From NCBI GenBank assembly GCA_965222115.1, contig CBDCTJ010000003.1, positions 96,001 to 160,000 on the forward strand: a DNA stretch of 64,000 nt, given 5' to 3'. A model generated the notes under the pieces. The model was not told where the DNA came from and did not search any database. It saw only the letters and a program-made list of their open reading frames with translations. This DNA is from Planctomycetota bacterium. Lineage in GTDB: Bacteria > Planctomycetota > PLA2 > JAEUHO01. Positions 23,769 through 53,609 of this stretch are shown here, one piece after another; position 1 is the first letter of the stretch, and each line of letters begins with the position of its first letter. A program made the translations under genes and the position numbers.

Positions 23769-24755
23769 ATGACGCGCATGACGCTCGTGTTGTCAGGGAC
23801 TGCCTTGGTCTTTCTACTGACCCTTGGTGCCACCTCGGTTCACGCCAAAGCGGTCGTCGGCGATCGCGCATTCGATTTCGTCGGCAAAGAGTTCGTCAAT
23901 TCCGAGCCGTTTACGTTGGCCGACGTACGGGGCAAGTTGCTGCTCTACGAGTTCATTGGAACCGGCTGAAAGCCCTGCCATCACCAGGTCGTGCACCTGA
24001 ATGAACTTCAAGAAAAATACGGTCCCAAGGGACTTGTGGTCCTGAGCGTATCCAAAGAGCCGCGTTCCAACATCGACGAGTTCGTTGAAAAGACCGACTG
24101 CAAGACGCCCATCATGATCGAGGAGACCAACTCGGCCGATGCGTACGGCGTCACCAGTCTCCCAAGTATGTATGTGATTGGGCCCCGAGGTCGTGTGCTC
24201 TGGAATGGCAACCCCGGTAATCTTCGAGACAGTGAAATTGAAGGTTGGCTGGAAGGCATCCGTCCTACGCCTACATTTCCCAAGGCCATGTCCTCGGTAA
24301 AGAAGGCCTTCGCCAAGTTCAAGTATGCCGACGCGCGCAAGAAGGCACAAGCACTTGTGGACAAGGGCGGTGATGAAGACGTGGTGAGCGCCGCCAAAGC
24401 AACCGTCGAGTGGATCGATTGGTGGGGCACGGGCGGTCTCGAAGACGCGGCCAAAGACGCGGAGGGCGGCAACCCGTTCGCCGCGTGGGTGCAGTACGAC
24501 GAGATTGCGACGTCGTTCAAGGGTCTTGAAGCGGGAGACAAGGCCAAGGCCGCCATCAAGGAACTGTTGGCCGACAAAGACGCAAAGAACGAAATCAAGG
24601 CCGGCAAGAAGTGGCTCAAACTCGAAGCCAAAGTGCGCGACCTGTCCAAGAAGAAGGCGCTGCGACTCTTGGAACCCTTCGTAAAGAAATATGGAGAGTT
24701 ACGTGCGGCCGCACGTGCCAAGGCGCTGCTTACGAAACTGAAAAGGTCCAAGTAA
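23769..24755 (+). CDS. Candidate selenoprotein: exported TlpA/AhpC-TSA redoxin with UxxC motif and helical C-terminus (328 aa, Sec67)
   Basis: ORFs 23769..23969 and 23991..24755 are in frame across TGA 23967-23969: GKLLLYEFIGTG-U-KPCHHQVVHLNELQEKYG; hairpin after the TGA; signal peptide. Confidence 0.88.
23970..24003 (+). promoter_or_regulatory. Putative bacterial SECIS element
   Basis: CAGGT-CGTGC-ACCTG stem-loop 16-30 nt after the TGA, with G in the loop. Confidence 0.6.
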
Positions 24756-24767
24756 CGGTTACGCGCT

Positions 24768-25130
24768 TTGACCTCGCTAACCAACCTTCGACCTACGGGC
24801 ATTCGCCTACGTTGGCTCATCGGGTTCGCCGCATTTGCAGCGGCCGTGGCGTGGCTCGCACTTGTCCATGCGAGATCCTGGCCGGTTGCCGCGCGACTCG
24901 CGGTCGTGTTGCCGCTCTTCGTCGGCTTGCTGGGAATGGATCAAGCACGTACCGGGACCTGAGTGCGTCTTGCACAGCAGGGCGTCCGTGAAGGCGACCC
25001 GGGGCTTGTACCCGTCGCAAACGCCGATGAGGCGAAAACGCTCAAACGGCGCGGCCACGCGATTCTCATACGGAGCGCTCTCCTTGCGCTCATGTTCGCT
25101 GTTGTACTTACGTTCGTCCTCCCAGGCTAG
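24768..25130 (+). CDS. Candidate selenoprotein: small 3-TM membrane protein (120 aa, Sec65)
   Basis: Reads through TGA 24960-24962: LLGMDQARTGT-U-VRLAQQGVREGDPG...ALLALMFAVVLTFVLPG to TAG 25128-25130; hairpin after the TGA. Confidence 0.72.
24963..24996 (+). promoter_or_regulatory. Putative bacterial SECIS element
   Basis: CGTCTT-G-CAC ... GTG-AAGGCG stem closing a G-rich loop (CAGGGC). Confidence 0.5.
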
Positions 25131-25370
25131 CCCGGATGTTGCACGAACAAGGTGAATCGCGCGGTTCTCGCTGGTCTTCGTCCCCAATCTCATTGCGGAG
25201 AACCGCTCAGCGATGCTTTTGGCATCGCCTCGGAACCACCGCTTCGATCTTGGACCCGAATCCTCACCGAGAACACCTTGTCATTCTTCGTTCGCATGGA
25301 GTTCGATCACAAGTCCCCAATCCACAACTCCTTGCGTTGCCCCGGACGCGCGCTTCGTGCAACATCCGGG
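25131..25370. mobile_element. MITE (non-autonomous IS derivative), 240 bp
   Basis: Perfect 17-bp TIR CCCGGATGTTGCACGAA (25131-25147 / 25354-25370) flanked by CTAG on both sides (25127-30, 25371-74); no transposase. Confidence 0.85.
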
Positions 25371-25420
25371 CTAGCGCATGCTTGAACCGGAGGGTTGCGC
25401 GGCGTGTAAGATCGCTCTCG

Positions 25421-26743
25421 ATGCGCCCCTTCATCATTCTCAGGCCTACGTTCCGTCGATTCGCTTGGATATGCGCATGCGTCGCGGCAGCCACGCTCAC
25501 GCCTCGAGGGGTCCTCGCCCATCCCCATACCACGCCCGCACCCGTCAATGTCTACGTGGAAATCACAAAGGACATCATCCACTCCACCGTGACGGTGGAT
25601 GAGCCGCTGTTTCGCGCCTGGGTGGGTCGAGAGGGTTCGGGGGAGGAGCCCAACAAGGAGGATGCGCAGTCGTTCGTGCAAAAGCACGCACCGGTGAAAG
25701 TAGGCGACGTTGAAGTGACCCCGCGTGTGGAACAAGTTCAGATGCTTCCCGCGTTTCGCCCCATTGATCCGACGCAACCTGAAGTGCCGGAACGCTACAT
25801 GGTGCATGTGCGCTATCCACTGTCCGTTGCAGAGATGCCGCCTGAGATTCACTTTTCGTGGGACCGATTTGATGGCGTGGATTGGGAAGGATCCGTACAA
25901 GTTCCAATCACGCTGAAGAGCCCCGGCAACTTCGCGGACAATCTGTTTTCGCCGATCGATCCGCACTACACCTGGCGCGCCAGTGAACACAAGCCGCGTC
26001 CGGTTCGCGACGTCGCGCATGTCGAAGCCAAGCCCCCCGAGCGCTGGACCATTCCGATGGCGCCCATCTTCGTCATCCTGGCACTGCTCGCCGTGCGGTG
26101 GCTCCCGATACTTCGACGTGCGGGGACACCGCTACGCGCATCCGTTGTTGCCAGTTCGATGGCCGCCGCTGCGTTGCTGTGGGCACCGCTGACCCTGTCG
26201 ATCGTCGCGCCGGGAAGCGCTGGCTCGGTCCTACCAACGGCCGAAGAAGCCAAGGTGATCTTCGAGCAACTCCTCGACAATGTATACGCGGCGTTTGATG
26301 CCGACGACGAAGACGCCATTTACGATCGCCTCGCCCTGAGTATTGATGGCGCGCTCATCAACGACGTGTATGCGGAGGTCTACGAGAGCCGAATCATGCG
26401 CAACAACAGCGGCGTGATCGTGGTCATCGATTCTGTGGATCACGACGACCGCCACATCGATATTCCCGAAGCGGTGTGGAAACGCCATTTCGATGTCATT
26501 TGGTCGTGGCGCGTTCACGGTTCAATTACACATCTGGGCCACACACACAAGCGAACCAACTTCTACCGCGCAGAGTTCACCGTGCGACACACGGGCGACG
26601 CGTGGAAGATCGCTTCGCAGAAGATTTTTTCGCATAAGCGGGAGGACACGGACGTGTATCCCGAAGGCCAGGCTCCCAAGGATCTCAAACCAAGCGACGC
26701 CCCCACCGTAAAGACGCCGATCATGGGTGGATCACCCAAATAG
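25421..26743 (+). CDS. Exported/membrane hypothetical protein at head of putative metal-uptake operon
   Basis: Signal peptide ending VLA-HPH; two TM segments; C-terminal HLGHTHKRTN. Confidence 0.7.
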   Translation: MRPFIILRPTFRRFAWICACVAAATLTPRGVLAHPHTTPAPVNVYVEITKDIIHSTVTVDEPLFRAWVGREGSGEEPNKEDAQSFVQKHAPVKVGDVEVTPRVEQVQMLPAFRPIDPTQPEVPERYMVHVRYPLSVAEMPPEIHFSWDRFDGVDWEGSVQVPITLKSPGNFADNLFSPIDPHYTWRASEHKPRPVRDVAHVEAKPPERWTIPMAPIFVILALLAVRWLPILRRAGTPLRASVVASSMAAAALLWAPLTLSIVAPGSAGSVLPTAEEAKVIFEQLLDNVYAAFDADDEDAIYDRLALSIDGALINDVYAEVYESRIMRNNSGVIVVIDSVDHDDRHIDIPEAVWKRHFDVIWSWRVHGSITHLGHTHKRTNFYRAEFTVRHTGDAWKIASQKIFSHKREDTDVYPEGQAPKDLKPSDAPTVKTPIMGGSPK

Positions 26744-27493
26744 ATGGTTACGGAGTCGCACACCACGGAGCTGACACCGCGAGATCGCGTCTCGTCGCAT
26801 ATCTCTGTATCCAATCTTGTGTGGACCTACCCCAAGGATCGACTTGATTTTGAACTGCGTGTTCCAGTGCTTGACGTGTTGCCGGGAACGAGCACAGCCT
26901 GCACGGGACCCAGCGGATCCGGGAAGAGCACGCTGTTGCAGATTGTTGCTGGCATCCTTTGGCCTGCTCAGGGTCGTGTCGTGGTGGGGCCGCTGGATCT
27001 CTCCGCAGACGCCTCGCCTGCGCCCAGCGACGCCACGCGACGCGCGTTTCGCATTCAACATATTGGCATGGTCTTTCAAGAGTTCGCGCTGCTCGATCAC
27101 CTGACCGTGGAAGAGAACATCCTCCTACCCTACGCCATTCACCGTGTGCACAAGAAAACACCCGATGCCCTGAAGCGCGCCCGCGCACTTGCCGATCAAG
27201 TTGGCATCGCGAATCACCTTCACCGCTACCCAGCGTGGCTCTCGCAGGGTGAGCGCCAACGCGTCGCGGTGTGTCGTGCGGTAGTTACGCACCCGCAAGT
27301 CCTGCTGGCCGATGAACCCACGGGCAATTTGGATCCCGATACGTCGGACGTCATTGTAGAAGTCTTGCTAAACGAAGTACGCACGCGCGGTGCCTCGCTC
27401 ATCATGGCCACGCACGACGTCAGTCGCATTGCGAGTTTCGATAGTCACTTGGCGCTGGACAAAACGTCAAGGGGCGCGGAGAAGGCGACATGA
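26744..27493 (+). CDS. ABC transporter ATP-binding protein (LolD/MacB-type)
   Basis: GPSGSGKST, LSQGERQRVA, ADEPTGNLD. Confidence 0.9.
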   Translation: MVTESHTTELTPRDRVSSHISVSNLVWTYPKDRLDFELRVPVLDVLPGTSTACTGPSGSGKSTLLQIVAGILWPAQGRVVVGPLDLSADASPAPSDATRRAFRIQHIGMVFQEFALLDHLTVEENILLPYAIHRVHKKTPDALKRARALADQVGIANHLHRYPAWLSQGERQRVAVCRAVVTHPQVLLADEPTGNLDPDTSDVIVEVLLNEVRTRGASLIMATHDVSRIASFDSHLALDKTSRGAEKAT

Positions 27494-28659
27494 AGGACCT
27501 CATCGGTCTTGCGTGGCGCTACATTCGCCACTATCCGCTGCGTAGTAGCCTATTGGTGCTGTGTATTGCGTTGGTGATCGTGTTGCCGCTTGCCGTGCAC
27601 CTGCTCATGGGACGCTACGAACAATCGATTCGCGGTCGTGCCGAGGCAACCCCGCTCGTTGCGGGCGCCGTGGGGAGCCGTTACGACCTCGTACTCAACT
27701 CGCTCTACTTTGCCGGACGGGTACCGCGCGCAATGTCCATGGCAGATGTGAAGGCGCTGGATACTCGCAAACCGGGAACCGTGGTGCCACTTCTCATTCG
27801 TCACCGTGCGAGTGACCATGCCATCGTGGGCACCACGCTTGACTACATGCGCGCGCGCGGCGTCACGGTTGCGAATGGTCGCGGATTGCGGGTACTGGGC
27901 GACTGTGTACTGGGTAGTGAGGTCGCACGTTCACTATCGCTTGGACCGGGCGATCACATTTTGTCGGATCGGAATCACTTGTACCGATTTGGTATGGAGT
28001 ATCCACTGCGAATGCGCGTCGTGGGTGTGCTCAGCCCCACGCACGGACCGGATGACCACGCAGTCTTTACCGACATCAAAACGACGTGGGTCATGGAGGG
28101 CATCGGGCACGGACACGAGGCCGGCGAAGATCAACCCACGGACCGCGCCTCCAAGGACGCGAATGGCCAGTGGGTGTTCAATGCCGAAGCGGTGGAGTAC
28201 ACCGAGATCGACCCCAACAATGTGGACCGCTTTCACTTCCATGGCGATCCAAGCACGTTTCCGGTCACGGCCGTGTTGTTGTGGCCACGCAACGATCGCG
28301 AGGCGACGATCGTGCAGGGCAAGTTTCGGTCGCATCAACGAATACAGTTGCTCGCACCGTCGGGCGTGATGGCGGAGATCTTGGGCCTGGTGTCCTCGCT
28401 CAAGACGTTCTTGGATGCGAATCTCCTGCTCGTGCTGCTCGCGTGTGCGCTATTTCTCGCACTGATCGTCTTGCTCACGCTTCGCGTGCGGGCGCGAGAG
28501 ATGGATACGTTGTATAAGCTCGGGTGCGCAAAGAACACGCAGGCCAAGCTCATTAGCCTTGAGTTGTTGATCCTGATTGGGGCGGGAATAGCAGTAGGAT
28601 TGCTTCTTGCCTTGGGAGCTAGTGCATGGATAGCCGGACAACTACCCCTAAGTCTCTAG
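27490..28659 (+). CDS. ABC transporter permease (FtsX/MacB-type) with His motifs
   Basis: LAWRYIRH; GIGHGH; FHFHGD; C-terminal TMs. Confidence 0.8.
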   Translation: MKDLIGLAWRYIRHYPLRSSLLVLCIALVIVLPLAVHLLMGRYEQSIRGRAEATPLVAGAVGSRYDLVLNSLYFAGRVPRAMSMADVKALDTRKPGTVVPLLIRHRASDHAIVGTTLDYMRARGVTVANGRGLRVLGDCVLGSEVARSLSLGPGDHILSDRNHLYRFGMEYPLRMRVVGVLSPTHGPDDHAVFTDIKTTWVMEGIGHGHEAGEDQPTDRASKDANGQWVFNAEAVEYTEIDPNNVDRFHFHGDPSTFPVTAVLLWPRNDREATIVQGKFRSHQRIQLLAPSGVMAEILGLVSSLKTFLDANLLLVLLACALFLALIVLLTLRVRAREMDTLYKLGCAKNTQAKLISLELLILIGAGIAVGLLLALGASAWIAGQLPLSL

Positions 28660-29555
28660 TCGATGCATTCGGCGCTTGGATCGCCGCCTTCGCTTCGTTC
28701 TTGTTGGCCATAACGATGACCGGGTGCAGTGATCGACCTGACGACCCCACGCCTCGCGCCATGTCGATCGACGGACCCGTGCACGTCGTAGCCAACCTGC
28801 CTCCTTACGCGAGCCTTGTTTCAATGATCGGCGGAGACAGTGTTCGCGTTCATACGCTTCGTGCAGCGGGAGACACGACGCACGGAACCTGGAAGCCAAC
28901 CGACGACGACTACAAAGCACTGGACGCAGCCCACCTCATTGTGGTGCTTGGACCGGCCTTTGATGGTTGGCTTTCGTTTACGTCACTTCCCGAATCCAGC
29001 GTTTTGCACTTGGCCGAGTCAATCAAGGGCGACGAGGTCCTAATTGAGGACGAAGCGCCGCATCGCCACGGCATGGGTGCCGCGCATTCACACTACGTAT
29101 TGGATCCCCATATCTGGTTTGATCCCCTGTTGTTTATGAAACATGCAGCTGCTATTACGGACGCGCTCGCCGATCGGCTACCGAAACATGCTGCATTGTT
29201 TCGCGGGCGGCTCGAACAGATCCGCGGAAGACTTCAGGCGGTCCACGAAACACTTAAGACCGTTGTGTGGCCAAAGAACACGGCAGTCTACAGCTTATCG
29301 CCGGCGTACCGTTACTTGGCAAAGCGGTATGGATGGACATGGAACCTTCTGGCAACGGATCGGGAGCAGCGTAGCAAGCAACTACAAGCCACAACACCTG
29401 CCGTTGTCGTCGTAGACCCTTCCGCAGAACGTATTGCTGCCGATGGCAAGTCGCTTCTCATGCGATCGATGCCGAGTCCCACGACGAACACCGACATTGT
29501 GACGTTTCTGGAGCACGCGGCAGACCAATGGGTCGAGGCGTCCAAGCGGTCATGA
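28626..29555 (+). CDS. ZnuA/TroA-like metal-binding lipoprotein
   Basis: MTGC lipobox; His-rich loop HRHGMGAAHSH; DPHIWFDP. Confidence 0.85.
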   Translation: MDSRTTTPKSLVDAFGAWIAAFASFLLAITMTGCSDRPDDPTPRAMSIDGPVHVVANLPPYASLVSMIGGDSVRVHTLRAAGDTTHGTWKPTDDDYKALDAAHLIVVLGPAFDGWLSFTSLPESSVLHLAESIKGDEVLIEDEAPHRHGMGAAHSHYVLDPHIWFDPLLFMKHAAAITDALADRLPKHAALFRGRLEQIRGRLQAVHETLKTVVWPKNTAVYSLSPAYRYLAKRYGWTWNLLATDREQRSKQLQATTPAVVVVDPSAERIAADGKSLLMRSMPSPTTNTDIVTFLEHAADQWVEASKRS

Positions 29556-31106
29556 CGTCGATTCCAGGCGCCGTTCGCGCGTCGATTGCTCGCCAAATCG
29601 AAACGCGGGGCCTGTAGATCCATCCCCTTGCAACGCGGGAACGTGCATGACGAATGTGGCGCCCTCTCCTTGTTCGCTGTCCGCGAATATCTCACCCCCG
29701 TGCGAGTGCACGATGCGTTCGCAGATCGTGAGGCCAATGCCCGTACCCTCATATTTGTCACGTCCGTGGAGGCGGCCAAACATGGAGAAGATCTGGGCAG
29801 CGTACTTGGGTTCAAACCCTATCCCATTGTCTTTCACGCGAATCGTCCAACCGTTGTTGCCGCCCTCTTGATATGCCTCAGCGCTGATTCGAATGTGTGG
29901 CGCGCGGTCGCTGTGACGAAACTTAATCGCGTTTTCGACTAGATTGATGAACAATTGAACGAGTTGAGACGGTACCCCCGCGATCGTGGGCAGGTCTGAG
30001 ACGTGAAGCGTGGCGTCCTCTGCGACCATGCGTTCACCCAGCTCCGTGCGAGCCTCGTCTACGATCTCGTTGAGATCGACGGCTTCAAATGCTGCACCGG
30101 CACGCGAAACCCGTGCGAGTGCCAATAGATCGTCAATCAGCCGACGTGCACGCGAGGCCGCCGAGTGCGCGCGATCCAAATAGTCTCGACCGCGATCGTC
30201 CAGCCGATCTTGGTAGTCGGATACCAATCGACTGGAAAAAGCCTGAATCTTGCGCAACGGCTCCTGCAAATCGTGGCTCGCCGCATAGGCAAACTCTTCG
30301 AGTGCGCGGTTGCTTCGGAGCAAGTCCTGATTGCGCCCCCGTACTTCTTGCTCGGCCCGCGCGCGTTCGCCCGCCTCCAGGCGTAGCTCCTCGTTAATGC
30401 GCGCCAAAGCCTGTTCACTCGCCCGCAACTCGGCCTCACGGGCATCGCGTTCTTGAAGTGCGTTACCTAGCGCATTGACTGAATTCGCTAGACGACGAAG
30501 CTCGGGCGCGGCCGTCACGCGAAGCGGTTTGGCCATGCGGCCTTGAGTAAGCTCCGATAGCCCCCGGTCAATTTGAATCACGGGACGCGACGTGAGCAAG
30601 TGCGTCAGCACGGCAATCAATGCGCCCGTGCCCAACATGCCGAAAAACGTCGCAACCTGTAGCCGTTGTGCGTGCCGAGCGATGCGGGCACGCTGGGGCG
30701 CCATGTTCCAGGTTGCCACTGTGGAACCGAATGTCTCCGTGCTGATGGCGATGGGTGTACGCGAGACGAAAACGTCGGTTGCCCCGGCCGCATCGGATCG
30801 AATCCATGTAGCCAACTCCGTGCCATCGCGGTTGTGCACGGAGAGTCTGCTCAAATCGCGCAGTACGCGACCACTTTCTTCCACGACCGTTTCAAGGCCA
30901 AGCGCATCCTCGCGCACTACGGCTTCGACCGACGTGGCCGCCATGAGCGCCGTCAACTCACGACTCTGTTCCAGCAACTGGGATTCGAGGTACTGCGTCT
31001 CGGCGTCCCGTACAAACCGACCCAAGAGGAAGGCCGCGATGACGCTACAGAGTGCTACGGCGAGTATGATCTGCAACCACAGGGGCATTGCTCGCAAGGC
31101 ATTCAA
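29550..31106 (-). CDS. Membrane sensor histidine kinase (HAMP)
   Basis: 2 TM; FAYAASHDLQEPLRKI, NAIKF, DNGIG, GTGIGL. Confidence 0.9.
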   Translation of the reverse strand: MNALRAMPLWLQIILAVALCSVIAAFLLGRFVRDAETQYLESQLLEQSRELTALMAATSVEAVVREDALGLETVVEESGRVLRDLSRLSVHNRDGTELATWIRSDAAGATDVFVSRTPIAISTETFGSTVATWNMAPQRARIARHAQRLQVATFFGMLGTGALIAVLTHLLTSRPVIQIDRGLSELTQGRMAKPLRVTAAPELRRLANSVNALGNALQERDAREAELRASEQALARINEELRLEAGERARAEQEVRGRNQDLLRSNRALEEFAYAASHDLQEPLRKIQAFSSRLVSDYQDRLDDRGRDYLDRAHSAASRARRLIDDLLALARVSRAGAAFEAVDLNEIVDEARTELGERMVAEDATLHVSDLPTIAGVPSQLVQLFINLVENAIKFRHSDRAPHIRISAEAYQEGGNNGWTIRVKDNGIGFEPKYAAQIFSMFGRLHGRDKYEGTGIGLTICERIVHSHGGEIFADSEQGEGATFVMHVPALQGDGSTGPAFRFGEQSTRERRLESTS

Positions 31107-32056
31107 CGGGACGATTTCCCGTCAAAAAACGCATCGTTACTTTCCATGGCTTCCCGTATCGGCTGATAGAGACCCGTGTTGCCTTCCACGAAACCGGTGG
31201 CGCCCAACGCTTTGAGTGCGACCGGGCCTTGGAACTCGCGAAACACTTTGCGCATGGCCGCAACCACCCGCGCATCGAGCTTGGACCTGGCGACCCATGG
31301 CTTGGTCACGTTATCGAAGCGATGCAAGACGCGAAGCTCGCGGCCCTTTGCCACGAGCTTCTTAAACGTCCCTTCCTTCAGCGCGCCGGCGTCGTATTCG
31401 CGGGAGGCCACGGCAATGCCGACACGGTCGTGACGACCGAGGTATTCATGCCCGGCAAGATCGCGCTTGAATATGCCATGCTTGACAAGTTCATGCTGCG
31501 CCAGGTAACGACCGATCGTGGACATCTCGTCACCAAATGCAAATCGCTTGCCCTTGAGATCGGCGATCGTTTTGATCTCGCTCTTGGGGTGCACCGCAAT
31601 GACGCCGCTAAACGTTGTCTTGCCCTTCTTCGTCTCCACGGCCAACAGGTGAAGTCCCGGATTGTCACGTGTCGCCTCGACAAAGGACGCGGGGCCTAAG
31701 CGTGAAAAATCAACGCTCCCTTCAACCAGTGCGGAAACACCTTTGCGATAGGTCGGCGCCACCTCGGAGCGAATGGTCACGTTCTCTCCGAGTAACTCGG
31801 ACAATCGAGTCTGGAGCACATCCAAGGTGGGGCGAAACTGCTTGATGACAACACTAACTTTGTCGGTGGCGTACACGCCAAACACGATTGCACGCGATGG
31901 CCGATTCGTATTCGTGGCCTGATTTGATGCCGACTCCCCCTTCTCACTGGCAGTCGTTGTCTGGGCATCTCCGTTGCCACAAGCAGTCAAGACAAGTGAC
32001 AACACGAGGCCAGCCAACAGGTGGCCACTACGTGTAGGCTTCTGATTCTCAGACAT
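31103..32056 (-). CDS. PhnD-family phosphate/phosphonate-type substrate-binding lipoprotein
   Basis: LTAC lipobox; DLKGKRFAFGDEMSTIG; GRHDRV. Confidence 0.85.
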   Translation of the reverse strand: MSENQKPTRSGHLLAGLVLSLVLTACGNGDAQTTTASEKGESASNQATNTNRPSRAIVFGVYATDKVSVVIKQFRPTLDVLQTRLSELLGENVTIRSEVAPTYRKGVSALVEGSVDFSRLGPASFVEATRDNPGLHLLAVETKKGKTTFSGVIAVHPKSEIKTIADLKGKRFAFGDEMSTIGRYLAQHELVKHGIFKRDLAGHEYLGRHDRVGIAVASREYDAGALKEGTFKKLVAKGRELRVLHRFDNVTKPWVARSKLDARVVAAMRKVFREFQGPVALKALGATGFVEGNTGLYQPIREAMESNDAFFDGKSSR

Positions 32057-32107
32057 GGCGTGGTTCTCACAGCGATTGGACATTTCAAGGGATCGGGCGT
32101 ACGCGTT

Positions 32108-32896
32108 TCAAATTTCTTGGTGCTCGACGTCAAAGGACATACGTGTACCACCACTTGCTGGCGTCGAGACGACCAATTGCCCCCCGAGCAGCGCAACCGC
32201 CCGGTCCACTATGGCGAGTCCAACGCCGGTTCCCGGAAACTCCACATCGGGATGCAGAGAGCGAAACAGGGAGATCGCATCGGACGCCCGTTCCGGGTCG
32301 AGCCCAATACCGTTGTCCTCAACGAAGAACGTTTGTCGAGTCCGATCCGGGCCGTTCGTGGAACCGATCGAAATTCGTGGGGATGGCGACGCAGCGACGG
32401 CCTTGAGCGCATTGGACGTCAACTGTTCCGCAATCATCGCAAACAGACGCCGCGAGGTACAGACCGGGACCATGGGTGACAACGCTACATCGACGCGCTG
32501 TTCGGGATCCAATGATGCGTGGGTCCGCAGCGCCTCATGAAAGACAGCCGTGGGGTCAACAGGCTCGGCGTCAAGGGGAAGGGTACGCATGCGCGAGAGG
32601 GAGAGAATCGCCTCGATCATTTCACGAAGTCGCTCGGCGGCGCGGCGTATCCGATGAAGAAAGTCCTGCCCTTCTTCGTCTAGTCGTTCCGCATGATCGC
32701 GCAAGAGAATCTTCGAAAACCCGTCAAGACTTCGCAAGGGAGCACGGAGATCGTGAGAAATCGCGTACTCAAGATCCGCAAGCTGGCGCCGGACAGATGC
32801 CAGCGGATCTTCACGCGCCACGTGGTCGCCCCGTGCCTGCGTAAGCGTCTCGTTGGGTCTCCCTGGCGACGGGTTTCCGGCGGGGCGATCACTCAT
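32108..32896 (-). CDS. Cytoplasmic histidine kinase without sensor domain
   Basis: YAISHDLRAPLR, DNGIG, GTGVGLAIV; no TM. Confidence 0.85.
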   Translation of the reverse strand: MSDRPAGNPSPGRPNETLTQARGDHVAREDPLASVRRQLADLEYAISHDLRAPLRSLDGFSKILLRDHAERLDEEGQDFLHRIRRAAERLREMIEAILSLSRMRTLPLDAEPVDPTAVFHEALRTHASLDPEQRVDVALSPMVPVCTSRRLFAMIAEQLTSNALKAVAASPSPRISIGSTNGPDRTRQTFFVEDNGIGLDPERASDAISLFRSLHPDVEFPGTGVGLAIVDRAVALLGGQLVVSTPASGGTRMSFDVEHQEI

Positions 32897-32917
32897 ACGT
32901 TGGAACTTGCGCAGGTG

Positions 32918-33385
32918 CTAATGTGGCGGAAGTTCGACGATCGAAAACCAGTACCGTCCCAAGGTACGCATGGCTTCCACGAAACCGTCAAAGGTCACGG
33001 GCTTCGTCACAAATGAACTCACGCCCAGATCGTAGGTGCGCACAATATCCTCTTCGGCGCGCGATGTAGTCAACGCAACGACCGGAATGCGTCGCAAATC
33101 GGGATCGCTCTTGATTTCTTTCAACGCCTGTCGCCCATCTTTCTTGGGCATGTTTAGATCGAGGAGAATCAAACCCGGTCGAGGCGATGTGGTTGGGTCC
33201 TCGTAGCGACCTCGGCGATGGAGGTACTCCATCAGTTCTTCACCGTCACCGACATGATGCAACTCGTTGACGAGTCGGTTTTCCTTTAGCGCATCTTCGA
33301 TGAGTAACACGTCATCTGGATCGTCTTCGGCGAGGAGAATCACGATCGGCGACTGATCGTCCGGGGCTTTACGCAGATAGCTCAT
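32918..33385 (-). CDS. Single-domain response regulator (Rcp1-like)
   Basis: LLAEDDPDD, PGLILLDLNMPKKDG, FVTKPV, YWF. Confidence 0.9.
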   Translation of the reverse strand: MSYLRKAPDDQSPIVILLAEDDPDDVLLIEDALKENRLVNELHHVGDGEELMEYLHRRGRYEDPTTSPRPGLILLDLNMPKKDGRQALKEIKSDPDLRRIPVVALTTSRAEEDIVRTYDLGVSSFVTKPVTFDGFVEAMRTLGRYWFSIVELPPH

Positions 33386-33566
33386 GCCAAGACGATACCG
33401 ATGGGACCACGCGCGGCGCCCAAATTGCTGAACGAAGACGAGTACGCCCTCCGCTGCGGCGCCAGAAACTAGGGATCCGCGGCGTTCGGGGGTGGGTTTA
33501 GGGGTATCCTGACGTTCAGATTCGGACTCTCGGGGCATCCTCTCTGAGAACGTAGGAAAAGCGAGC

Positions 33567-35318: not shown

Positions 35319-35427
35319 CCGCCGACTCGCGTGTACATGCATCAACGAAATCATGCGTCAAAACGAAGAGAGGCGCGCCCGGCATGGAACGGACGCGCCC
35401 ATTGCTTTTCGTTCGAATGGCTACTCG

Positions 35428-36192: not shown

Positions 36193-36325
36193 ATCGATTC
36201 TCCTGGTCAGGCTTCACGGACACGCTGCCTTGTAGACACTTGCGTCAACCCAAACCGGGGTCGCGACGTGCATGCCCATGAAGTGTGGGCGACCATACCA
36301 GAAACAGGGCGAAGCAGGGCTTTGA

Positions 36326-38682: not shown

Positions 38683-38703
38683 AGATAGGCTCCTTAACCC
38701 GCG

Positions 38704-40617: not shown

Positions 40618-40618
40618 A

Positions 40619-41332: not shown

Positions 41333-41549
41333 TGCACCCTCCCGCGATTGGGCCTTTTGGCGGACCATGAAGGCCCACCGCACCATGGTATCGGCGGAGG
41401 ACTTCGCACCTTCTTGTTCGTCCAGTGAGATTCACACAAATCGTGATGCGCGTCGGGCCGCGGTTGCGCTCACGGGTCACGCCTTCAAACTGAGCGCGTT
41501 CGCGGCATCACGACCGCGTCGCAATTCCGCATGGAGCCCGACCAACGTC

Positions 41550-42158: not shown

Positions 42159-42159
42159 T

Positions 42160-42960: not shown

Positions 42961-42969
42961 AACGTCGTG

Positions 42970-45900: not shown

Positions 45901-46968
45901 TGTCTTGCCAAGGTCTTGAAGTACAGTGCCCAAGTTATTTAGGCATGTGGCCACACTCGAATGGTCCTCTGAATATAAGCGCTTAAACATCGCTAACGCT
46001 CTCTCGTAGTAGGAAAGCGCCTCGTTGGCTTTGCCGAGATCTTGAAGTACACCGGCCATGTTGTTCAAGCTCGTGGCCACGCCGGAGTGATTTCCCGAAA
46101 ACAGACGCATTCGCATCTTTAGTGCTTTCTCGTAGCAGGAAAGTGCCTCATCGGGCTTGCTAAGCCTTAGAAGCGCGCCAGCCAAGTTGTTCAAACTCAA
46201 AGCCACCTTCGGGTGATCCCCTGAATACAAGCGCCTTCTCATTTCTAGCGCCTCTTTGTAGTAGGAACGCGCCTCGTTTGCCTTGCCAAGGCTTAGAAGT
46301 ACATAGCCCAAGTTGTTTAGGCTCAAAGCCACATCCGGATGGTCTCCTGAAAACAAGCGCTTATACATCTCGTGCGCTCTTTTGTAATAGGAAAGCGCAT
46401 CGTCGGCCCTTCCAAGGCCGTCCAAAACAGATGCCAAGTTGTTTAGGCTCGTAGCCACAGCGGGGTGGTCCCTTGAGAACAAGCGCATTCTCATCTCTAG
46501 TGCTTGCTCGTGGTAGGGAAGCGCCTCGCCAGCTTTGCCAAGACTCTCGTAGGCGACGGCCAAGTTGTTTAGGCTCATTGCCACAGCCGGATGCTCTCCT
46601 GGAAATAAGCGCCCATGCATCTCGAGCGCTTCTTTGTAGTAAGGAAGCGCCTCACTGGCTTTGTCACTATCTTTAAGTGCACCGGCCAATTTATCTAGGC
46701 AGATTGCAAGCTCTTTATGGTCCTTCTTACGTGCGCGAAGCAACTGAATCGCCGCCTTGTAGTCCCTGATCGCCTCTTCGTGTCGGCGGGCCTCTCTATG
46801 CGCATCCCCTTGCTCGCGAAGTTTCCGAGCCTTTACAACCTCCGAGTCCTCGGCACCATCGGCCTCCGCTTTCGGCTCCTCGGTTTTCGGTGCGTCCTCG
46901 GCCGCGATCGACCCACTTCCCAACACCAATAGTGCAACCAACAACGCGCGTGAAAAAGCCAACTTCAT
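42970..46968 (-). pseudogene. Signal-peptide TPR(13x42 aa)-PDZ-CHAT caspase-like protein interrupted by one in-frame TAG (44916-44914)
   Basis: The TPR ORF and CHAT ORF are in the same frame, separated only by TAG; LHLATHG and VLSACES catalytic motifs intact; PDZ-like insert (SPGSQAAKLKLRPGDVITAY). Confidence 0.8.
44990..46660 (-). repeat. 126-bp coding tandem repeat (TPR units)
   Basis: 13 units of 42 aa; identical 65-bp blocks at 45511-45575 and 46015-46079 (4x126 apart). Confidence 0.9.
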
Positions 46969-47284
46969 GGAGCCACCTCCCGCCGCAGTGTCTGCGCGGC
47001 AGCCATTGGCGTCAAGAAAACTGGGAAACGGCGCGAGGACGAGTAACTCACACTTCATGCTTAGCTCGAGACTCGCTCTCCCTCCCCAAACTTGAATCGT
47101 TGATTGGCTGCTCGATACGCTCTGTAGTGAGAGATGGAACTATTCGCTGCGAGGCTGAGTTCCGCGAATCTGAGGCGGCAGCCAACGGCATGTGTTCTCT
47201 CTGCGACTCTGCCACGCTGCGTCTCTGCGTGAGATAACCCACTCCCGGCGAACAGGCTCGCGATTCGAGTGCAAAGATCACGTC

Positions 47285-50008
47285 CTACCGATTCCTCGGC
47301 CGCACGGTGAACTTCAAGTTGCGCTGCGACAGGTCAATGCCGGAACGGCGCTCCATCAGTGTGGTGCCGTCTTTCTGGGACTTGTACACCGAAATCTCCA
47401 ATCGCTCCTTCGCATCGGCGGGTACGTAAAGTCGAAATTCACCCAGTGCGTTGGTCGTTTCCTTCAAGTTGAATCCGGCAAACTGTCCGTATACCTGTAC
47501 GTTGGCGCCCTCTACCGCTCGCCCTTGCGAATCAACAACGACACCCGACATGATTTTGGGCGGCGTAAGAGCAACGGTCAGCGTGTCGTCCGATGGACGT
47601 ACGTTCTTGACGGCCACGCGACCGAGGCGGCTACGATCGCTCTTAGGGGGATGTACGATGACAAGCAGCGGCATGGCGGTTAAGTCTGAAATCGTGGCCA
47701 TGCCCCGCTTATCCGTCTTTGGATGTTCGGCATCCAATGTTGGCGTGGGACGCACGTCAATGGTTGCGCGTTCTACAGGCGCGCCCGCTGTGTCCTCAAC
47801 GCGAATAGTAAGTGTGAGGTCCTTGGGGACGCGCTTCGCGCGCAGCGTAATGAGCGGTCCGTCACCCTTGACATCGAGTGCCTGTGCAAACCAAGGTACT
47901 TGTAGGTTCTTGTGTCCCTTCTTTGATCGTCGAAAGACGTTTCCTTGAAATTGAACGTCGACCGCAACTCCGAGTGGCACCAACAACCGGAATGCACCCT
48001 TCCCATCGGTCGTGGCGGAGTCCACCTGGTGGCCGGCGCGTTTGGCACTCACGAAAGCGCGCTCGAGCGGCGTGTCGTCGGCGAGTAACACGCCGTGAAC
48101 CACCGCTGCGCGCTTCAAGACAATCGTGTGTGTCTTCTCTCTCACGGCAAGGCGCACGGCGTCGGGGGTCAAATAGACCTCCTTTGAGTCGACCATCCCA
48201 CCCTCGTAGGCAACGAGCGCCCGCGTAACGCGCAGTGGCAACACAAACGAAATGCACCCATCGGCGTCTGTGTCGTTGTAGGTTTCTTCGCCCCCTTCGG
48301 GCTCGATTCGGAAGAACGCCTCTTTGATTGGCTCACCGTCTTCGTTCACAACAAGGAGACTCAGCTTGTGAGTGGGTTGAAACTGAAGCCGGATCGACGG
48401 ATGCGTGTTACCAGCGCGCAAAGTTAGGGATTGAGTCACGACGTCACCGCGCGTTCCGGCCTGAACGACATAACTACCGGGCGCTAGATCGGGAAAGGCG
48501 AACCGACCGTCTGCACCCGTACGCGTCTCTTCTTGGCGCCCGTAATCCAAGTCGACGGATTCACCGCCATCACGTCGCAATCGTCCCGCGTCGTCATTTG
48601 CGCCCTGGATAGAAACGTAGAGTCCGGTTCGCGGCGCGCCATCGGCATCCACGACAGCTCCGGTAAGCGCAACGCCGCTTGGGACTACAATTTCACCAAG
48701 ATCCACTTCGTTCGCTGACGCTACAGGAGCATCGAAATCCGTGAGATACCTGCCGTAGCCCGGTGACTGAATGACAACGCTGTGGACAATGGATGGCGTA
48801 AGACCGTCAAACGAAAACAATCCGTCGCCCGATGCGACGCCATGGGCGGTGGAGATGCTCTGACGCGAATCCACGAACTTGGAACCGACAACACTCACTC
48901 GGGCGCCCGATAGCGGATTTCCCGATTCATTGACTGCTCGGCCACGTACGGAGAATCCTCGCACAAGTGCAAAGTCGACCGTCTTCTTGTTGGCCACATC
49001 GTACGATGCACGCGCGTAGCCGGGGGCTAGCACATGAATGTCGTGATATCCATTACCCGTCCAGCCGCCGAGCGCATACCGTCCCTCTTCATCGGCACGA
49101 GTCTCCTTGTGAAACACCCAGCCCATGCCAACGCGCGCACCGGCGATGGCTCGTCCGGTCACCGCGTCGGTCACAGTGCCCGTTACGAGGCGCCCCTTAG
49201 GAATCGTCAGTGTCATCGTGCGAGAGCCTGATTCGGGAAGCCGGTGAGTCTCGTAGTCGTCCATCCAACCACCCAGATGATTATCGTTGGCACTGATACG
49301 AAATGACCAACCGGGCGGAAGATTTGCAAACGTATGCTTGCCATCTGCATCCGTCGTCGCCTTGATGTCATGACCGTAGTCGCCGCTGCTGTCAAACAGA
49401 CTGAGCTCGAGTGAGACAGACGGAAGCACATCGCCGTTTTCGCCTTGCGTTGTCACGTGCAACGCGACACCACGATGCAGAACGAGTTTCACATACGAGG
49501 CTTGCGTCAGGTTCTTTCGAGTGAGCGATGCATAGCCTTCCAGTCGGACGTTCACATGAATGGATTCGCCCTGCCGCACGGGGAGCGCAAACGTTCCATC
49601 CGTAGCGCTGTAGGTGCTCGCACCATACGCAGGTTCGTCATATCGGTCTGCCGCCAAGATCGAACCACGCCGCCACGGAAAGCGAACGATACGCAGCTCT
49701 GCGCCCGCCAGAGGCAAACCCTCGCTATCTAAGACAACACCGTGAACGTCACCCCTTCGCTTGGCGGCCTTCAAGTCAACCGGAGGATGAGAGGCATCCC
49801 CGTTGAACGCATCGATCGATGGATTGCGAACGTCTTTGCTGCCAAGATCGACTGAATCTCGCTTCGAACCGAGCATCGGAGCCTTGGATGATGACGGCTC
49901 GTCGGTGCCGGAACCTTGAATTTCGTCACGCTCCGGCTCGCGCAGCGTCCAAACGCATGCCGCGAGGAGAATCAGCGCGCCAATCAAGATCATTCCGCGC
50001 ATGGTCAA
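47285..50008 (-). CDS. Exported carboxypeptidase-regulatory/Cna-B-like repeat protein
   Basis: N-terminal TM; repeated GxVxDxxGxP / TDADGxF motifs. Confidence 0.8.
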   Translation of the reverse strand: MTMRGMILIGALILLAACVWTLREPERDEIQGSGTDEPSSSKAPMLGSKRDSVDLGSKDVRNPSIDAFNGDASHPPVDLKAAKRRGDVHGVVLDSEGLPLAGAELRIVRFPWRRGSILAADRYDEPAYGASTYSATDGTFALPVRQGESIHVNVRLEGYASLTRKNLTQASYVKLVLHRGVALHVTTQGENGDVLPSVSLELSLFDSSGDYGHDIKATTDADGKHTFANLPPGWSFRISANDNHLGGWMDDYETHRLPESGSRTMTLTIPKGRLVTGTVTDAVTGRAIAGARVGMGWVFHKETRADEEGRYALGGWTGNGYHDIHVLAPGYARASYDVANKKTVDFALVRGFSVRGRAVNESGNPLSGARVSVVGSKFVDSRQSISTAHGVASGDGLFSFDGLTPSIVHSVVIQSPGYGRYLTDFDAPVASANEVDLGEIVVPSGVALTGAVVDADGAPRTGLYVSIQGANDDAGRLRRDGGESVDLDYGRQEETRTGADGRFAFPDLAPGSYVVQAGTRGDVVTQSLTLRAGNTHPSIRLQFQPTHKLSLLVVNEDGEPIKEAFFRIEPEGGEETYNDTDADGCISFVLPLRVTRALVAYEGGMVDSKEVYLTPDAVRLAVREKTHTIVLKRAAVVHGVLLADDTPLERAFVSAKRAGHQVDSATTDGKGAFRLLVPLGVAVDVQFQGNVFRRSKKGHKNLQVPWFAQALDVKGDGPLITLRAKRVPKDLTLTIRVEDTAGAPVERATIDVRPTPTLDAEHPKTDKRGMATISDLTAMPLLVIVHPPKSDRSRLGRVAVKNVRPSDDTLTVALTPPKIMSGVVVDSQGRAVEGANVQVYGQFAGFNLKETTNALGEFRLYVPADAKERLEISVYKSQKDGTTLMERRSGIDLSQRNLKFTVRPRNR

Positions 50009-50054
50009 CAGCTCCTCGTCAATCTACATCTAAGACGAGTGTGTCACCGGTCCG

Positions 50055-51023
50055 TTACTCGCGCGCCAACACTTCTATGATCATCCACCCGCGTTTGAAA
50101 TCGAGCAGCTCAGGATGCACGTGACCCACGGGCGTTCGTTCGTCGAGGATCCACTTCAACAAATCGCTTCCGATGTCTCGTGTGCCCCAGTGAATCCACT
50201 CCGTGCGTTCGCGGGTCTTGGGATGGCGAACCTCTAGAACGCCGCCTCGTGCGCGCGTGGCGGCGTCGAAGCAGTACTGCCGCGCCATTTCGTCAAATTC
50301 TGCTTCTTCTTTGAGGATTTTGTTGAGTACGCCCTGTGCCGTACTTCGAGCCACATCACGCGTGATATGACGCTTCTTCTCCTGCGCAGGCCAGCTTCCT
50401 CGATAGGCGAACGTAATCACGCGCACTTTGGCCCGCCGCCGTGCTTCGCGCCTTTGAAGGGCGAGCAATTCAAATCCGCGCTTGCGGTCGATGCGTTTCG
50501 CGAAGCCGAATCCACCGTTCCACTCGATCACGGGCGTCATACCCCAAACCGGCGTGGCTATGTAGACACGATCGCGACGCGTGATTGACTTGGGATCGAG
50601 CGGCGCAAATGTAAATCCCAATGCGCGCGCCCCCACGCCGTTGCTTGCCTCGCGCGCAACACTGCCGATATCCTCGCCGCGATAGACGCGCTTGCAGAGA
50701 TTGCGAACTCGTGCCAGTGCTTCATTGCGTGAACGGGGATAGCGGTTGGGAAGATGTTTGACGTCGTCCTCGAGATAGCTCACCCACACTTCTTGTGCGA
50801 AAAATGGATCACGAACGGGGCCGTTGACGTTGGGTGGCTCGATGTCACTTACAGCACACGTCTTGTTCAAGGCAGCGTCATCGGGCGTGGCACCTGTCGG
50901 TTGTCTCGACGCAGAAGACGAGCCGTTGGACGTCGAATCGCTTGAACGTGAAATCGCCCACGCGGTCGCACCGGCAGCCACCAGCAAAACGACCGCAAGA
51001 CTGATCCACTGTTGACGCGTCAT
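50055..51023 (-). CDS. Exported PpiC/parvulin-like protein
   Basis: N-terminal TM; two degenerate rotamase-like repeats (FDEMARQYCFDAATRARGGVL). Confidence 0.6.
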   Translation of the reverse strand: MTRQQWISLAVVLLVAAGATAWAISRSSDSTSNGSSSASRQPTGATPDDAALNKTCAVSDIEPPNVNGPVRDPFFAQEVWVSYLEDDVKHLPNRYPRSRNEALARVRNLCKRVYRGEDIGSVAREASNGVGARALGFTFAPLDPKSITRRDRVYIATPVWGMTPVIEWNGGFGFAKRIDRKRGFELLALQRREARRRAKVRVITFAYRGSWPAQEKKRHITRDVARSTAQGVLNKILKEEAEFDEMARQYCFDAATRARGGVLEVRHPKTRERTEWIHWGTRDIGSDLLKWILDERTPVGHVHPELLDFKRGWMIIEVLARE

Positions 51024-51035
51024 GGATGAATCAGT

Positions 51036-52976
51036 CTAGTCCGCCTTGGAGGATGTGTGCGTGGCCATGAATGCGGCGAGTGTGCGTGCAAACTCGGTAG
51101 GTTTGGGAAGCGGGGCTCCTTCGGCTAGGAGCGCTTGGCCATATACTAGTTCGGCATAGTCTTCAAACGACACGGCGTCGCGTTCGGTGGGGCTAGCTTC
51201 AGCAAGCGCAACGAGGCGTTCTACCACCGCGTGGTCCTTGTTCAGTTCCAAGGCGCGCGGTGGCTCGGGCATATCCTCGTTCATCTGACGCATCATGCGC
51301 AGCATGGCGGGACTCATGGCACCTTCGGGCGCAACCAACACAGCAGGGCTATCCGTGAGCCGCTTTGAAAAACGCACGTTGGAGACGCGTTCGCCAAAAT
51401 GTTCTTTGATGGCCTCGAGTGCATCTTTGTGTTCGCTCTCGGTCTCCGCCTCTTCCTTCTTCGCGTCGTCGTCTTTGTCTTCAAAGTCGAGATCGCCTTG
51501 GCTCGCAGGCTGAAGTTCCTTGTCGGCGAACTTGGTAAGGCGAGACACCATCCACTCGTCGATGGGATCTGAGAGTAACAATACGTCATAGCCCTTGGCG
51601 CGAAACGCTTCCAAGTGTGGGCTCGCGGCAAGCGTCTCCTTTTGCCCGCCCGTTACGTAGTAGATCTTGTCCTGATCTTCGGGCATGGCGTCTACGTATT
51701 GCCGCAAGGTGAGACGACCGGGCGCATCGGCAGTGTCAAACACGCACAGGTTCGAGATACGCTCATCATCGTCGGCGCCGTAGTAGATCCCCTCTTTCAA
51801 CATGGCGCCCATGCTCTGGAAAAATGTCTCGTAGGCTTCGCGATCCTCGTCCAAGAACTTCGCCAGCTCTTTGAGCACCTGCGACACGAGGTGTTTACGA
51901 ATGCGCTGCGTCACAGGATTGGCTTGAAGTGTCTGACGAGACACATTGAGCGGCAAGTCACTTGACTCTACCACGCCGCGCACAAAGCGCAGCCACCCCG
52001 GCAACAGGTCCTCACATTCGTCCATGATGAGCACCCGGCGCACGTACAACGACACGCGCGACTTGCTTTGGTTGGGATCCAGAAACATGGGATTCAACGA
52101 TTCGGGGACGAACAACAGGGCCTGAAATTCGACCGGCACCTCGGCGCGAATGTGAATCACACGCGCCGGCGCCTGCCAGTCGCGCGACATATGCTTGTAG
52201 AGCGAGGCGTATTCCTCGTCCTTCACCTCCGATGGCGAACGCGCCCACAGAGGCTTCTGCGAGTTGAGGGTCTTGTCGACCATCACTTGCTTCCGATCGT
52301 CGCCCTCGCCTTCCCACTCCTCCATCTTCATGCGAATAGGATGTTCCACGAAGTCGGAGTGACGTCGAACGGTTGCTTGAATCACATAGGGGTCGGCAAA
52401 ATCTTGCCACGTTTCGTCGTCGTCGCCCTTGGCTGCAAGGTGCAGTGTCACGCGCGTTCCACGTTCCTTGCGATCGATGTCTTCGAGCGTGTACTCCCCT
52501 TTGCCGGTCGAGGTCCAACGAACACCTTGCTTCTCGCCCGCACGTAGACTCTCGACGACGACCTTGTCGGCCACCATGAAACTCGAATAGAAGCCCACAC
52601 CAAACTGACCAATCAGGGCTGCCGCGTCGCTTTGCTTGTCCTTCTTGAGTTGGTCGATAAACGCCTTGGTACCTGACTTCGCGATCGTGCCGAGGTGCGA
52701 CGCCACTTCATCACGACTCATGCCAATGCCGTTGTCGATCACCGAAAGCGTCTGCGCTTCAGGATCGGCTTCGATGCGAATTGACAGCTCTTCGCCTTCG
52801 GCAAGAAGCGACGTGTCCTTCAATGCCGCCATGCGGAGTTTGTCCAGTGCATCGCTCGCATTGGACAGAAGCTCACGGAGGAAAATTTCTCGCTCGGTGT
52901 AGAGCGAGTGAATCATGAGCCCGAGAAGTTCTTGGGTCTCAGCCTCAAATGCGCGTGTCTCAACGGCCGTCGTCAT
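51036..52976 (-). CDS. htpG: Chaperone HtpG (Hsp90)
   Basis: EIFLRELLSNASDA, GTIAKSGT, IGQFGVGFYS, DLPLNVSR. Confidence 0.96.
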   Translation of the reverse strand: MTTAVETRAFEAETQELLGLMIHSLYTEREIFLRELLSNASDALDKLRMAALKDTSLLAEGEELSIRIEADPEAQTLSVIDNGIGMSRDEVASHLGTIAKSGTKAFIDQLKKDKQSDAAALIGQFGVGFYSSFMVADKVVVESLRAGEKQGVRWTSTGKGEYTLEDIDRKERGTRVTLHLAAKGDDDETWQDFADPYVIQATVRRHSDFVEHPIRMKMEEWEGEGDDRKQVMVDKTLNSQKPLWARSPSEVKDEEYASLYKHMSRDWQAPARVIHIRAEVPVEFQALLFVPESLNPMFLDPNQSKSRVSLYVRRVLIMDECEDLLPGWLRFVRGVVESSDLPLNVSRQTLQANPVTQRIRKHLVSQVLKELAKFLDEDREAYETFFQSMGAMLKEGIYYGADDDERISNLCVFDTADAPGRLTLRQYVDAMPEDQDKIYYVTGGQKETLAASPHLEAFRAKGYDVLLLSDPIDEWMVSRLTKFADKELQPASQGDLDFEDKDDDAKKEEAETESEHKDALEAIKEHFGERVSNVRFSKRLTDSPAVLVAPEGAMSPAMLRMMRQMNEDMPEPPRALELNKDHAVVERLVALAEASPTERDAVSFEDYAELVYGQALLAEGAPLPKPTEFARTLAAFMATHTSSKAD

Positions 52977-53084
52977 GGTCAAACTCCCGCATCGCCCGGA
53001 CAGCTAGCCCGGCGCGATCTCAATTTCGCCATCGATAGCCGCGACAGTTTATCGAGCCTTGGGCCTGTCGGAAGTCGGCGATGG

Positions 53085-53609
53085 TTAGTTCTCGTCTTCG
53101 GACTCTTCGTCGTCTTCGGCAGCTGCCTCCTCGGACTGTCTTTCTCGGAGGTCGGCCATCGACGGTGCCTCGTGACCTTCCAAGAGGGCATCCAAATCGG
53201 AGACGATTTCCTCACGCCCGTAGTGGTGCCCGCCGCGAATCGCCACGACATCGCCCGCGTCATTCATGACCACCATGCCGTGCAACGTGGGTCCAAACGG
53301 ATACTTCGCCGCGCGCTTCTTGCCCGTTTCGTTCCACCAGGCGTACCAGTTGTAGTCGAAACGGGCTATGTACTTCGGCTCATCGCAGATGGTGCGCAAC
53401 GTATCCGCTACGCGTTTGCACTTGCCTCAGGCCTCGCTGATTTGGAAGTACTCCACCCGAAACATGCTCGGCTCATCTTGGGGCTGCGATTCCGTTGCTG
53501 ACGAGGACTTCGCGGCCGTGTCCGACGGAGCCGGCGACGTGTCGCCGCAGCCTGCAATCAGTAGGAGCAACGTCGCCGAAAACGAAACGAGAAATCGATG
53601 GATGCGCAT
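53085..53609 (-). CDS. Candidate selenoprotein: thioredoxin-like lipoprotein with UxxC (174 aa, Sec61)
   Basis: ORFs 53427..53609 and 53085..53399 are in frame across TGA 53429-53427: FRVEYFQISEA-U-GKCKRVADTL; LIAGC lipobox; hairpin after the TGA. Confidence 0.85.
53396..53426 (-). promoter_or_regulatory. Putative bacterial SECIS element
   Basis: GCAA-ACG-CGTA-GCGGA-TACG-TTGC stem-loop, loop 19-23 nt after the TGA. Confidence 0.6.

Follow-up and report, generated by a model that had tools for sequence, protein, structure and literature searches.

Selenocysteine (Sec) use by planctomycetes is already in print (PMC4807772), and new families of bacterial selenoproteins are still regularly reported (PMC12013277). 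Table 1 of a 2026 review (PMC13188914) lists UxxC selenoproteins (U, Sec) of the Prx-like thiol:disulfide oxidoreductase, Redoxin-family, and TlpA-like (cd02966) kinds, as well as Trx (PF00085), Grx (PF00462), SaoT, and HUIPC-motif UxxC families. Here, we describe three genes, A, B, and C, in a 64,000-nucleotide stretch of a Planctomycetota bacterium genome (NCBI GenBank assembly GCA_965222115.1, contig CBDCTJ010000003.1, positions 96,001 to 160,000 of the forward strand; hereafter the window, whose coordinates are used below), each of which is broken by a single in-frame TGA that very probably encodes Sec. An earlier reading of the window's letters (the original prediction) had proposed three such unannotated genes for envelope proteins between positions 23,769 and 53,609, and the tests it had named and that were run support this core proposal. 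The genes and the codons in question are as follows.

Gene A, 23769..24755, plus strand: 328 aa on read-through; signal peptide, then AhpC/TSA-Redoxin domain, then helical C-terminal domain.
Candidate Sec codon of A, 23967..23969, plus strand: U67 in GTG-U-KPC; TGA in 17/20 aligned loci, TGC in 3/20.
Gene C, 24768..25130, plus strand: 120 aa, with a TTG start 12 nt past the stop of A, three hydrophobic helices, and one predicted Sec.
Candidate Sec codon of C, 24960..24962, plus strand: U65 in GT-U-VRLA; TGA in 15/16 aligned loci, TGC in 1/16.
Gene B, 53085..53609, minus strand: 174 aa, with the lipobox LIAGC, the motif U-GKC, and invariant Y54, H110, G111, and H128.
Candidate Sec codon of B, 53427..53429, minus strand: U61 in SEA-U-GKC; TGA in 20/20 aligned loci.

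Each frame was indeed broken by one TGA (A, 23967-69; B, 53429-27; C, 24960-62), which in A and B fell at the first Cys position of a CxxC motif, as predicted. The third gene had been proposed without coordinates, and we took C to be that gene because it was the sole other credible candidate in the region. The remaining read-through frames of the 30-kb region were adjacent genes or non-coding frames, and a further TGA-split candidate, near position 58417 of the window, looked non-coding and had no family match. The raw observation of TGA-split frames followed by hairpins is not beyond chance by itself, because open flanks are common (83 of the 938 TGA codons between positions 23000 and 54500 are flanked on either side by 30 or more open codons) and the hairpin energies are ordinary. 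The weight for the Sec reading therefore comes from homology and not from the split frames.

We searched 60 genomes of relatives in six frames with the A, B, and C proteins and aligned the fetched loci (20 for A, 20 for B, and 16 for C; locus L058, whose extended frame ran past its true stop, was excluded from alignment A2). The column of the interrupting codon was occupied by TGA or TGC throughout: the three TGC codons of A give CGPC, B had TGA in every locus, and the lone Cys form of C, in genome G021, adjoined a Cys form of A. The protein was conserved on both flanks of this column in all three alignments. When 401 genomes sampled evenly across the phylum were profile-searched with families B and C, 42 genomes matched B, with one TGA in 40 of the 44 matches, and 33 genomes matched C, with one TGA in 23 matches and none in 10. 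The nine fetched C loci without a stop had Cys (eight) or Ser (one), and the three such B loci had CPYC, CPFC, and, in one case, no remaining motif; Cys forms of B are rare, CxxC being present in 2 of the 44 matches. Thus, the comparison with homologues that the original prediction had called for showed either TGA or Cys in this position and no case of Trp. In addition, a single domain or fold spans the TGA in each protein, namely the Pfam AhpC-TSA match of A (residues 30-143) and the predicted single-domain models of B and C. Together, these results suggest that all three TGAs are very probably Sec codons and that each gene gives one full-length protein. The UGA would be read by tRNA-Sec and SelB, aided by a hairpin just downstream; what is shown here is that the TGA/Cys columns are conserved, which folds the proteins are predicted to adopt, and that the genome has Sec machinery, whereas selenium insertion is inferred, and the topologies and substrates suggested below are conditional in the same way.

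We then turned to the genome as a whole (G000; 7 contigs, 4.55 Mb, 90% complete). Its best SdhA matches, at 75-77% identity, were Planctomycetota metagenome-assembled genomes (loci L079, L080, and L085), which places it only roughly. The genome contained tRNA-Sec (71.6 bits, cut-off 47; anticodon TCA by ARAGORN), selA (480.7 bits; cut by the contig break between the start of contig C7 and the end of contig C1), selB (346.6 bits), all three over their cut-offs, and a Sec-type but frame-disrupted selD that is considered below; the proposed check of the Sec machinery therefore succeeded for three components and only in part for the fourth. As stated in the original prediction, the window itself has no sel genes or tRNA-Sec: Rfam found none there, and the sel genes map elsewhere in the genome. 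A selD was present in 28 of 30 relatives, with one TGA in all but one of the 28 matches (27/28), indicating that the clade uses Sec. TGA is otherwise an ordinary stop codon in this genome, ending 718 of the 2361 open frames of at least 300 codons. A genome scan combined with NCBIfam revealed five more probable selenoprotein genes with a family match spanning the TGA, listed here with contig positions matched in order of listing.

Peroxiredoxin (FV-U-AT): TGA at C7:2272806.
AhpD-like protein (CRF-U): TGA at C7:221469.
DsbD-like thioredoxin-fold protein (G-U-LGC): TGA at C7:1777930.
DsbD-like thioredoxin-fold protein (G-U-PPC): TGA at C1:31103.
Paralogue of A: TGA at C7:2028148.

The description of the organism as selenoprotein-rich is fair in view of these five genes; including selD, there are at least nine probable selenoprotein genes by this crude, non-exhaustive scan. 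Three further TGA candidates had no family match (C1:500085, GGC-U-G; C7:385807, FC-U-A; C7:2600933, VW-U-C).

The product of gene A begins with one hydrophobic segment followed by VHA-KA. Both the Pfam AhpC-TSA (PF00578; 57.8 bits, cut-off 26) and Redoxin (PF08534; 39.3 bits, cut-off 26.6) models scored above their gathering thresholds, the former across U67, and together with the U-KPC motif these matches place A in the AhpC/TSA-Redoxin group. In NCBIfam, A was below the cut-offs of ResA (NF002854; 82.6 versus 170 bits), TlpA (NF047696; 24.7 versus 230 bits), and VPGUxxT type 1 (NF041382; 28.7 bits, cut-off 350); residues 171-322 resembled the tail of NF041382 weakly (E 7.7e-7, under the cut-off). 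Judged from these matches, A is an exported TlpA/ResA-like thiol-disulfide oxidoreductase selenoprotein of a known kind. It would act in the periplasm as a TlpA/ResA-type oxidoreductase, with Sec in place of the attacking Cys of CxxC. A ketoacyl-synthase–like gene (window 22617-23696) precedes A, and a homologue of it adjoins the A orthologue in 6 of 19 relatives' loci; this adjacency may be conserved gene order only.

The N terminus of B consists of one hydrophobic segment and the L-I-A-G-C lipobox, whose Cys is kept in at least 90% of 19 aligned relatives. Y54, U61, C64, H110, G111, and H128 were invariant across the 19 aligned sequences. The predicted model of B (predicted local distance difference test [pLDDT] score 83.8; above 90 in the domain) had a beta-alpha-beta-alpha-beta-beta-alpha order with U61 ahead of helix 1. 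With this model, Foldseek retrieved 45 PDB entries at E<=0.001; almost all are thioredoxins, among them 1v98_A (TMt 0.85, root-mean-square deviation 2.2). This predicts a thioredoxin fold for B in which U-x-x-C opens helix 1. Sequence models detected this only weakly: B matched no Pfam family at E<=10, its lone NCBIfam row at E<=1 was SgcJ/EcaC (E 0.13; 12.2 bits, cut-off 33.95), and its relatives matched thioredoxin-type models at low scores (Thioredoxin_4 in 5/19, best E 1.6e-4; also Glutaredoxin and Thioredoxin_3). B has His-Gly at the site that a cis-proline usually occupies in thioredoxins, and a second invariant His after strand 4. Since two His are invariant, a metal site suggested itself: in this small membrane-anchored lipoprotein of predicted thioredoxin fold, the U-x-x-C center may bind metal and not serve solely as a redox pair.

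B also illustrates the claim that gene callers split such genes. A word-index protein search with B itself returned only its own 104-aa fragment, and a profile search of the word index returned 16 proteins, of which 15 were pieces of 71-104 aa. Four of these matches were inspected: three begin downstream of the UxxC, and the remaining one is a complete lipoprotein of 164 aa with CPYC. The splitting is therefore borne out for B. B itself lies about 100 nt upstream of a gene pair encoding HtpG (Hsp90) and a PpiC-type peptidyl-prolyl isomerase (PPIase) on the same strand (window 50055-52982). The neighbors of B (htpG, PPIase, M20) recur in just 2 of 19 relatives' loci.

The predicted model of C was a single compact fold (pLDDT 94; predicted template modeling score 0.83) composed of a helix (9-36), a second helix (47-62), U65, a short helix, a beta-hairpin (73-82), and a last helix (86-117). 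An exhaustive profile search with C identified 2506 cluster representatives at E<=1e-3, of which 890 reached 1e-10; almost every one is about 120 aa long. Of the best 150 representatives, 42 were aligned, and the Sec column was Cys without exception (42/42). The ten C clusters inspected for names were all "hypothetical protein". A word-index protein search with C had no match; C had no NCBIfam family at E<=1 and only sub-threshold Pfam rows (LNT_N, 16.8 versus 27.1 bits; TgpA_N, 6.6 versus 30 bits), and none of 43 members of family C exceeded any Pfam or NCBIfam cut-off. Foldseek gave no PDB match at E<=0.001 for C, and a PDB sequence profile search gave no credible one. In the ESM Atlas, a natural Cys-form homologue retrieved unannotated clusters only.

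According to the positive-inside rule, basic segments lie in the cytoplasm. Given its basic N terminus and the basic loop after U65, the Sec of C would then probably face the cytoplasm. All three proteins look exported or membrane-bound, as had been proposed (A has one N-terminal hydrophobic segment, B a segment and a lipobox, and C three segments), and these segments fit envelope proteins; the further term "extracytoplasmic", however, is doubtful for C. C would thus be a small inner-membrane protein with its Cys/Sec at the end of helix 2; with low confidence, we suggest that this residue carries out thiol/selenol chemistry, for example, redox sensing or chalcogen transfer.

The 3' end of C runs into an element resembling a miniature inverted-repeat transposable element (MITE; window 25126-25375, 250 bp), bounded by terminal inverted repeats of 22 nt that match perfectly. 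Elsewhere, the genome has some 16 longer copies of it, 80-100% identical, as well as several terminal repeats that stand alone. The element begins within the last sense codon of C and provides its TAG stop; contigs from public runs break at it, and depth jumps there. A 535-aa open reading frame listed from position 25136 begins inside the element, and its true start is thus probably further downstream.

The points that weigh against reading the three TGAs as Sec codons come from the hairpins, from selD, and from the origin of the contigs used to check the letters. As the pattern of a bacterial Sec insertion sequence (SECIS) element, we used one modeled on bSECISearch, with a stem of at least 5 bp, a loop of 3-8 nt that has a G in its first two places, and a loop start 16-37 nt after the U of UGA. 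The hairpins found after the three TGAs are listed below.

Hairpin of A, 23985..23999, plus strand: 5-bp stem CAGGU/ACCUG, loop CGUGC from +23; centroid -5.6 kcal/mol.
Hairpin of B, 53394..53413, minus strand: 8-bp stem with two G-U pairs, loop GAUA from +24; minimum free energy (MFE) -19.5 kcal/mol over 64 nt.
Hairpin of C, 24965..24985, plus strand: 9-bp stem with three G-U pairs, from +5 to +25, loop ACA from +14.

A stem-loop whose loop contains a G, predicted for 17-25 nt downstream of each TGA, was thus present in A (+23) and B (+24) but not in C, whose loop (ACA, +14) has none. Folding energies were of no help: the z scores of the three sites against dinucleotide shuffles were +1.57 (A), -1.39 (B), and -1.27 (C), and the family mean z scores against synonymous-codon permutations were -0.6, -0.18, and -0.82, respectively. 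Since MFE did not separate the sites from controls, we used hairpin position instead. The SECIS-like pattern was present in 17/17 (A), 15/20 (B), and 13/15 (C) TGA forms, where synonymous permutation expects 10.3, 10.3, and 7.5, and in 0/4 Cys forms. The loop start was conserved, at +24 in 16/17 A genes and at +22 in 10/15 C genes, and the relatives of A had a 6-7-bp stem with a GGU/GUU/GUC loop at +24 in 16/16 TGA forms; the stem of A itself is weaker, with 5 bp only. In family C, the helix formed by columns 17-22 with 26-31 was 91.1% paired, versus 83.7 +/- 1.3 in shuffles, with compensatory changes at 3 of 6 pairs; the CG-rich repeat concerned retains 66-77% pairing after a shift of two columns, and the sequences are related by descent. 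On the folding check, hairpin position speaks for the prediction at the family level, the energies are no better than chance, and of this genome's own copies A fits weakly, B fits, and C does not.

The SECIS helix of family C also encodes part of the protein. In most Sec forms of C (L064-L078), it specifies R-G-x-R-(E/D) after Sec, and the matching stretch varies in the Cys forms (L174-L182; e.g., RGTC, QGTC, and TGVF). It seems that RNA structure restricts which residues can follow Sec in C.

The C copy of this genome is where the Sec reading is most exposed, its hairpin being atypical for SECIS and the weakest point of the finding. It fails the pattern found in 13 of the 15 TGA forms and makes, counted by eye on the alignment, four of the six pairs of the family helix. 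The families could therefore be real while this copy is decaying, with a drifted SECIS, translation mostly ending at the UGA, and a 64-aa two-helix stub as its main product; the MITE-like element that abuts C and supplies its stop would fit such a history. We consider this unlikely on balance, since the 55 codons after the TGA are open and retain the conserved residues and the third hydrophobic helix, and C is 38-40% identical to its closest relatives across its whole length. Moreover, a different 9-bp hairpin lies directly 3' of the UGA, and PMC12013277 describes atypical bacterial SECIS elements as common.

Decay of Sec use in the organism as a whole would have left the TGA genes as recent relics giving truncated proteins, and the state of selD is what raises this alternative. 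The single selD scored 150.6 bits, over the cut-off, compared with about 335-368 bits in relatives. Its match frame contains five TGA and one TAA, with the missing pieces in open reading frames of other frames; if these frameshifts are real, no selenophosphate would be made. Conversely, the Sec-type active site GG-TGA-AAK is kept, and alignment to a relative's SelD showed good and garbled stretches that alternate and return to frame within about 750 bp, the mark of small indels from a poor consensus. The gene also lies within the last 1.2 kb of a contig whose end splits the adjacent selA as well (selA and selD together, C1:654443-655426 and C7:4-1329). We conclude that the disruption is probably poor consensus at a contig end, although a real pseudogene could look the same. 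The other components, tRNA-Sec, selA, and selB, are intact, and in at least eight TGA genes the frame past the TGA is still open and conserved, making a defunct Sec system very unlikely.

That the TGAs are ordinary stops, each separating two small genes or marking a pseudogene, draws on how common open flanks are and on gene callers' reporting of the second half of B as a protein. It is highly improbable, because one and the same column has TGA in many genera and Cys in the remainder, the protein is conserved to either side of it, and each site lies inside a single domain or fold. Finally, reassignment of TGA to Trp or Gly in this lineage, or sequencing errors, for which the in-frame TGAs themselves speak and no other support exists, is scarcely credible: TGA ends many long frames in the genome, homologues have Cys and not Trp or Gly at the sites, the TGA recurs in independent genomes, and the contigs of three public runs are identical over A and C. 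These contigs, from one sample of one study, match positions 23700-25177 at every letter and without gaps, which rules out an assembly error at the TGA of A and at that of C and answers the proposed sequencing check for these two genes; the sample may be the source of this genome's own assembly.

Sec insertion at the three TGAs thus being preferred, we asked whether the genes form one system. A and C, 12 nt apart here, are also adjacent in genomes G015 and G021 and, according to match coordinates, lie within 2-7 kb of each other in G013, G026, and G001. Across 19 family C loci, no neighbor was widely shared, A being the only recurrent link. B lies 28 kb from A and C and is unlinked to them in relatives. 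The single extracytoplasmic Se-redox system of the original prediction is not borne out, as no evidence joins the three genes; they are better described as three separate selenoprotein genes with a possible A–C link. In a bolder picture, which we regard as distinctly doubtful, C would represent a new and widespread family of membrane proteins in Sec and Cys forms, perhaps a far branch of the YgaP-like fold. Its membrane-interface Sec and the translationally coupled, periplasmic A would then constitute a selenium-based transmembrane thiol relay, in which an unrelated three-helix protein takes the role of CcdA/DsbD, and B would hold a Sec-Cys-His-His metal site on a thioredoxin scaffold.

B and C do not appear in the 119-family table of PMC13188914, judged by the names and domain identifiers given there. 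They match no selenoprotein model of NCBIfam 20.0 and no Pfam-A model over its cut-off, and a full-text literature search for "selenoprotein" together with "DUF2892" retrieved no paper. Because they are unlisted in that table and have no curated model, we rate B and C as new families of a kind already known. Gene callers routinely cut selenoprotein genes, and here one known and two unlisted families were hidden in this way. Family B, almost always in the Sec form in the phylum sample, is held by public protein sets mainly as fragments. Family C, with about 2,500 database clusters, is an unstudied membrane protein with an invariant Cys/Sec; as Pfam and NCBIfam have no model for it, its Sec forms would flag the catalytic residue. 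Cataloguing both families would mend annotation in many planctomycete genomes and provide two small, tractable targets for understanding why envelope proteins prefer Sec over Cys.

When compared with the described UxxC selenoproteins of the Prx-like, Redoxin, and TlpA-like kinds, A shares the AhpC/TSA-Redoxin domain, Sec as the first residue of UxxC, a signal peptide, and Cys-form orthologues. It differs from them in falling under the ResA and TlpA cut-offs and in its C-terminal helical domain of about 160 aa, which is weakly like the VPGUxxT type 1 tail. B resembles the Trx- and Grx-type UxxC selenoproteins in its predicted thioredoxin fold and in the U-x-x-C that opens helix 1, but unlike them it is a putative lipoprotein and is over no family cut-off. 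For C, the nearest described relative by likeness is the YgaP-like_TM family (PF11127, DUF2892). Membership of C in this family was considered and rejected: PF11127 matched 2/16 and 3/43 members below threshold (best E 0.0011; cut-off 25.3 bits), hhalign gave the C versus DUF2892 alignment a probability of 2%, and a PF11127 search of 41 genomes picked loci other than those of family C. C and PF11127 nevertheless share the basic ER..R...G motif at the N terminus and a layout of two transmembrane helices followed, some residues on, by an invariant Cys preceded by G.L.FQ(A/S)..T; C has in addition a beta-hairpin loop and a third helix.

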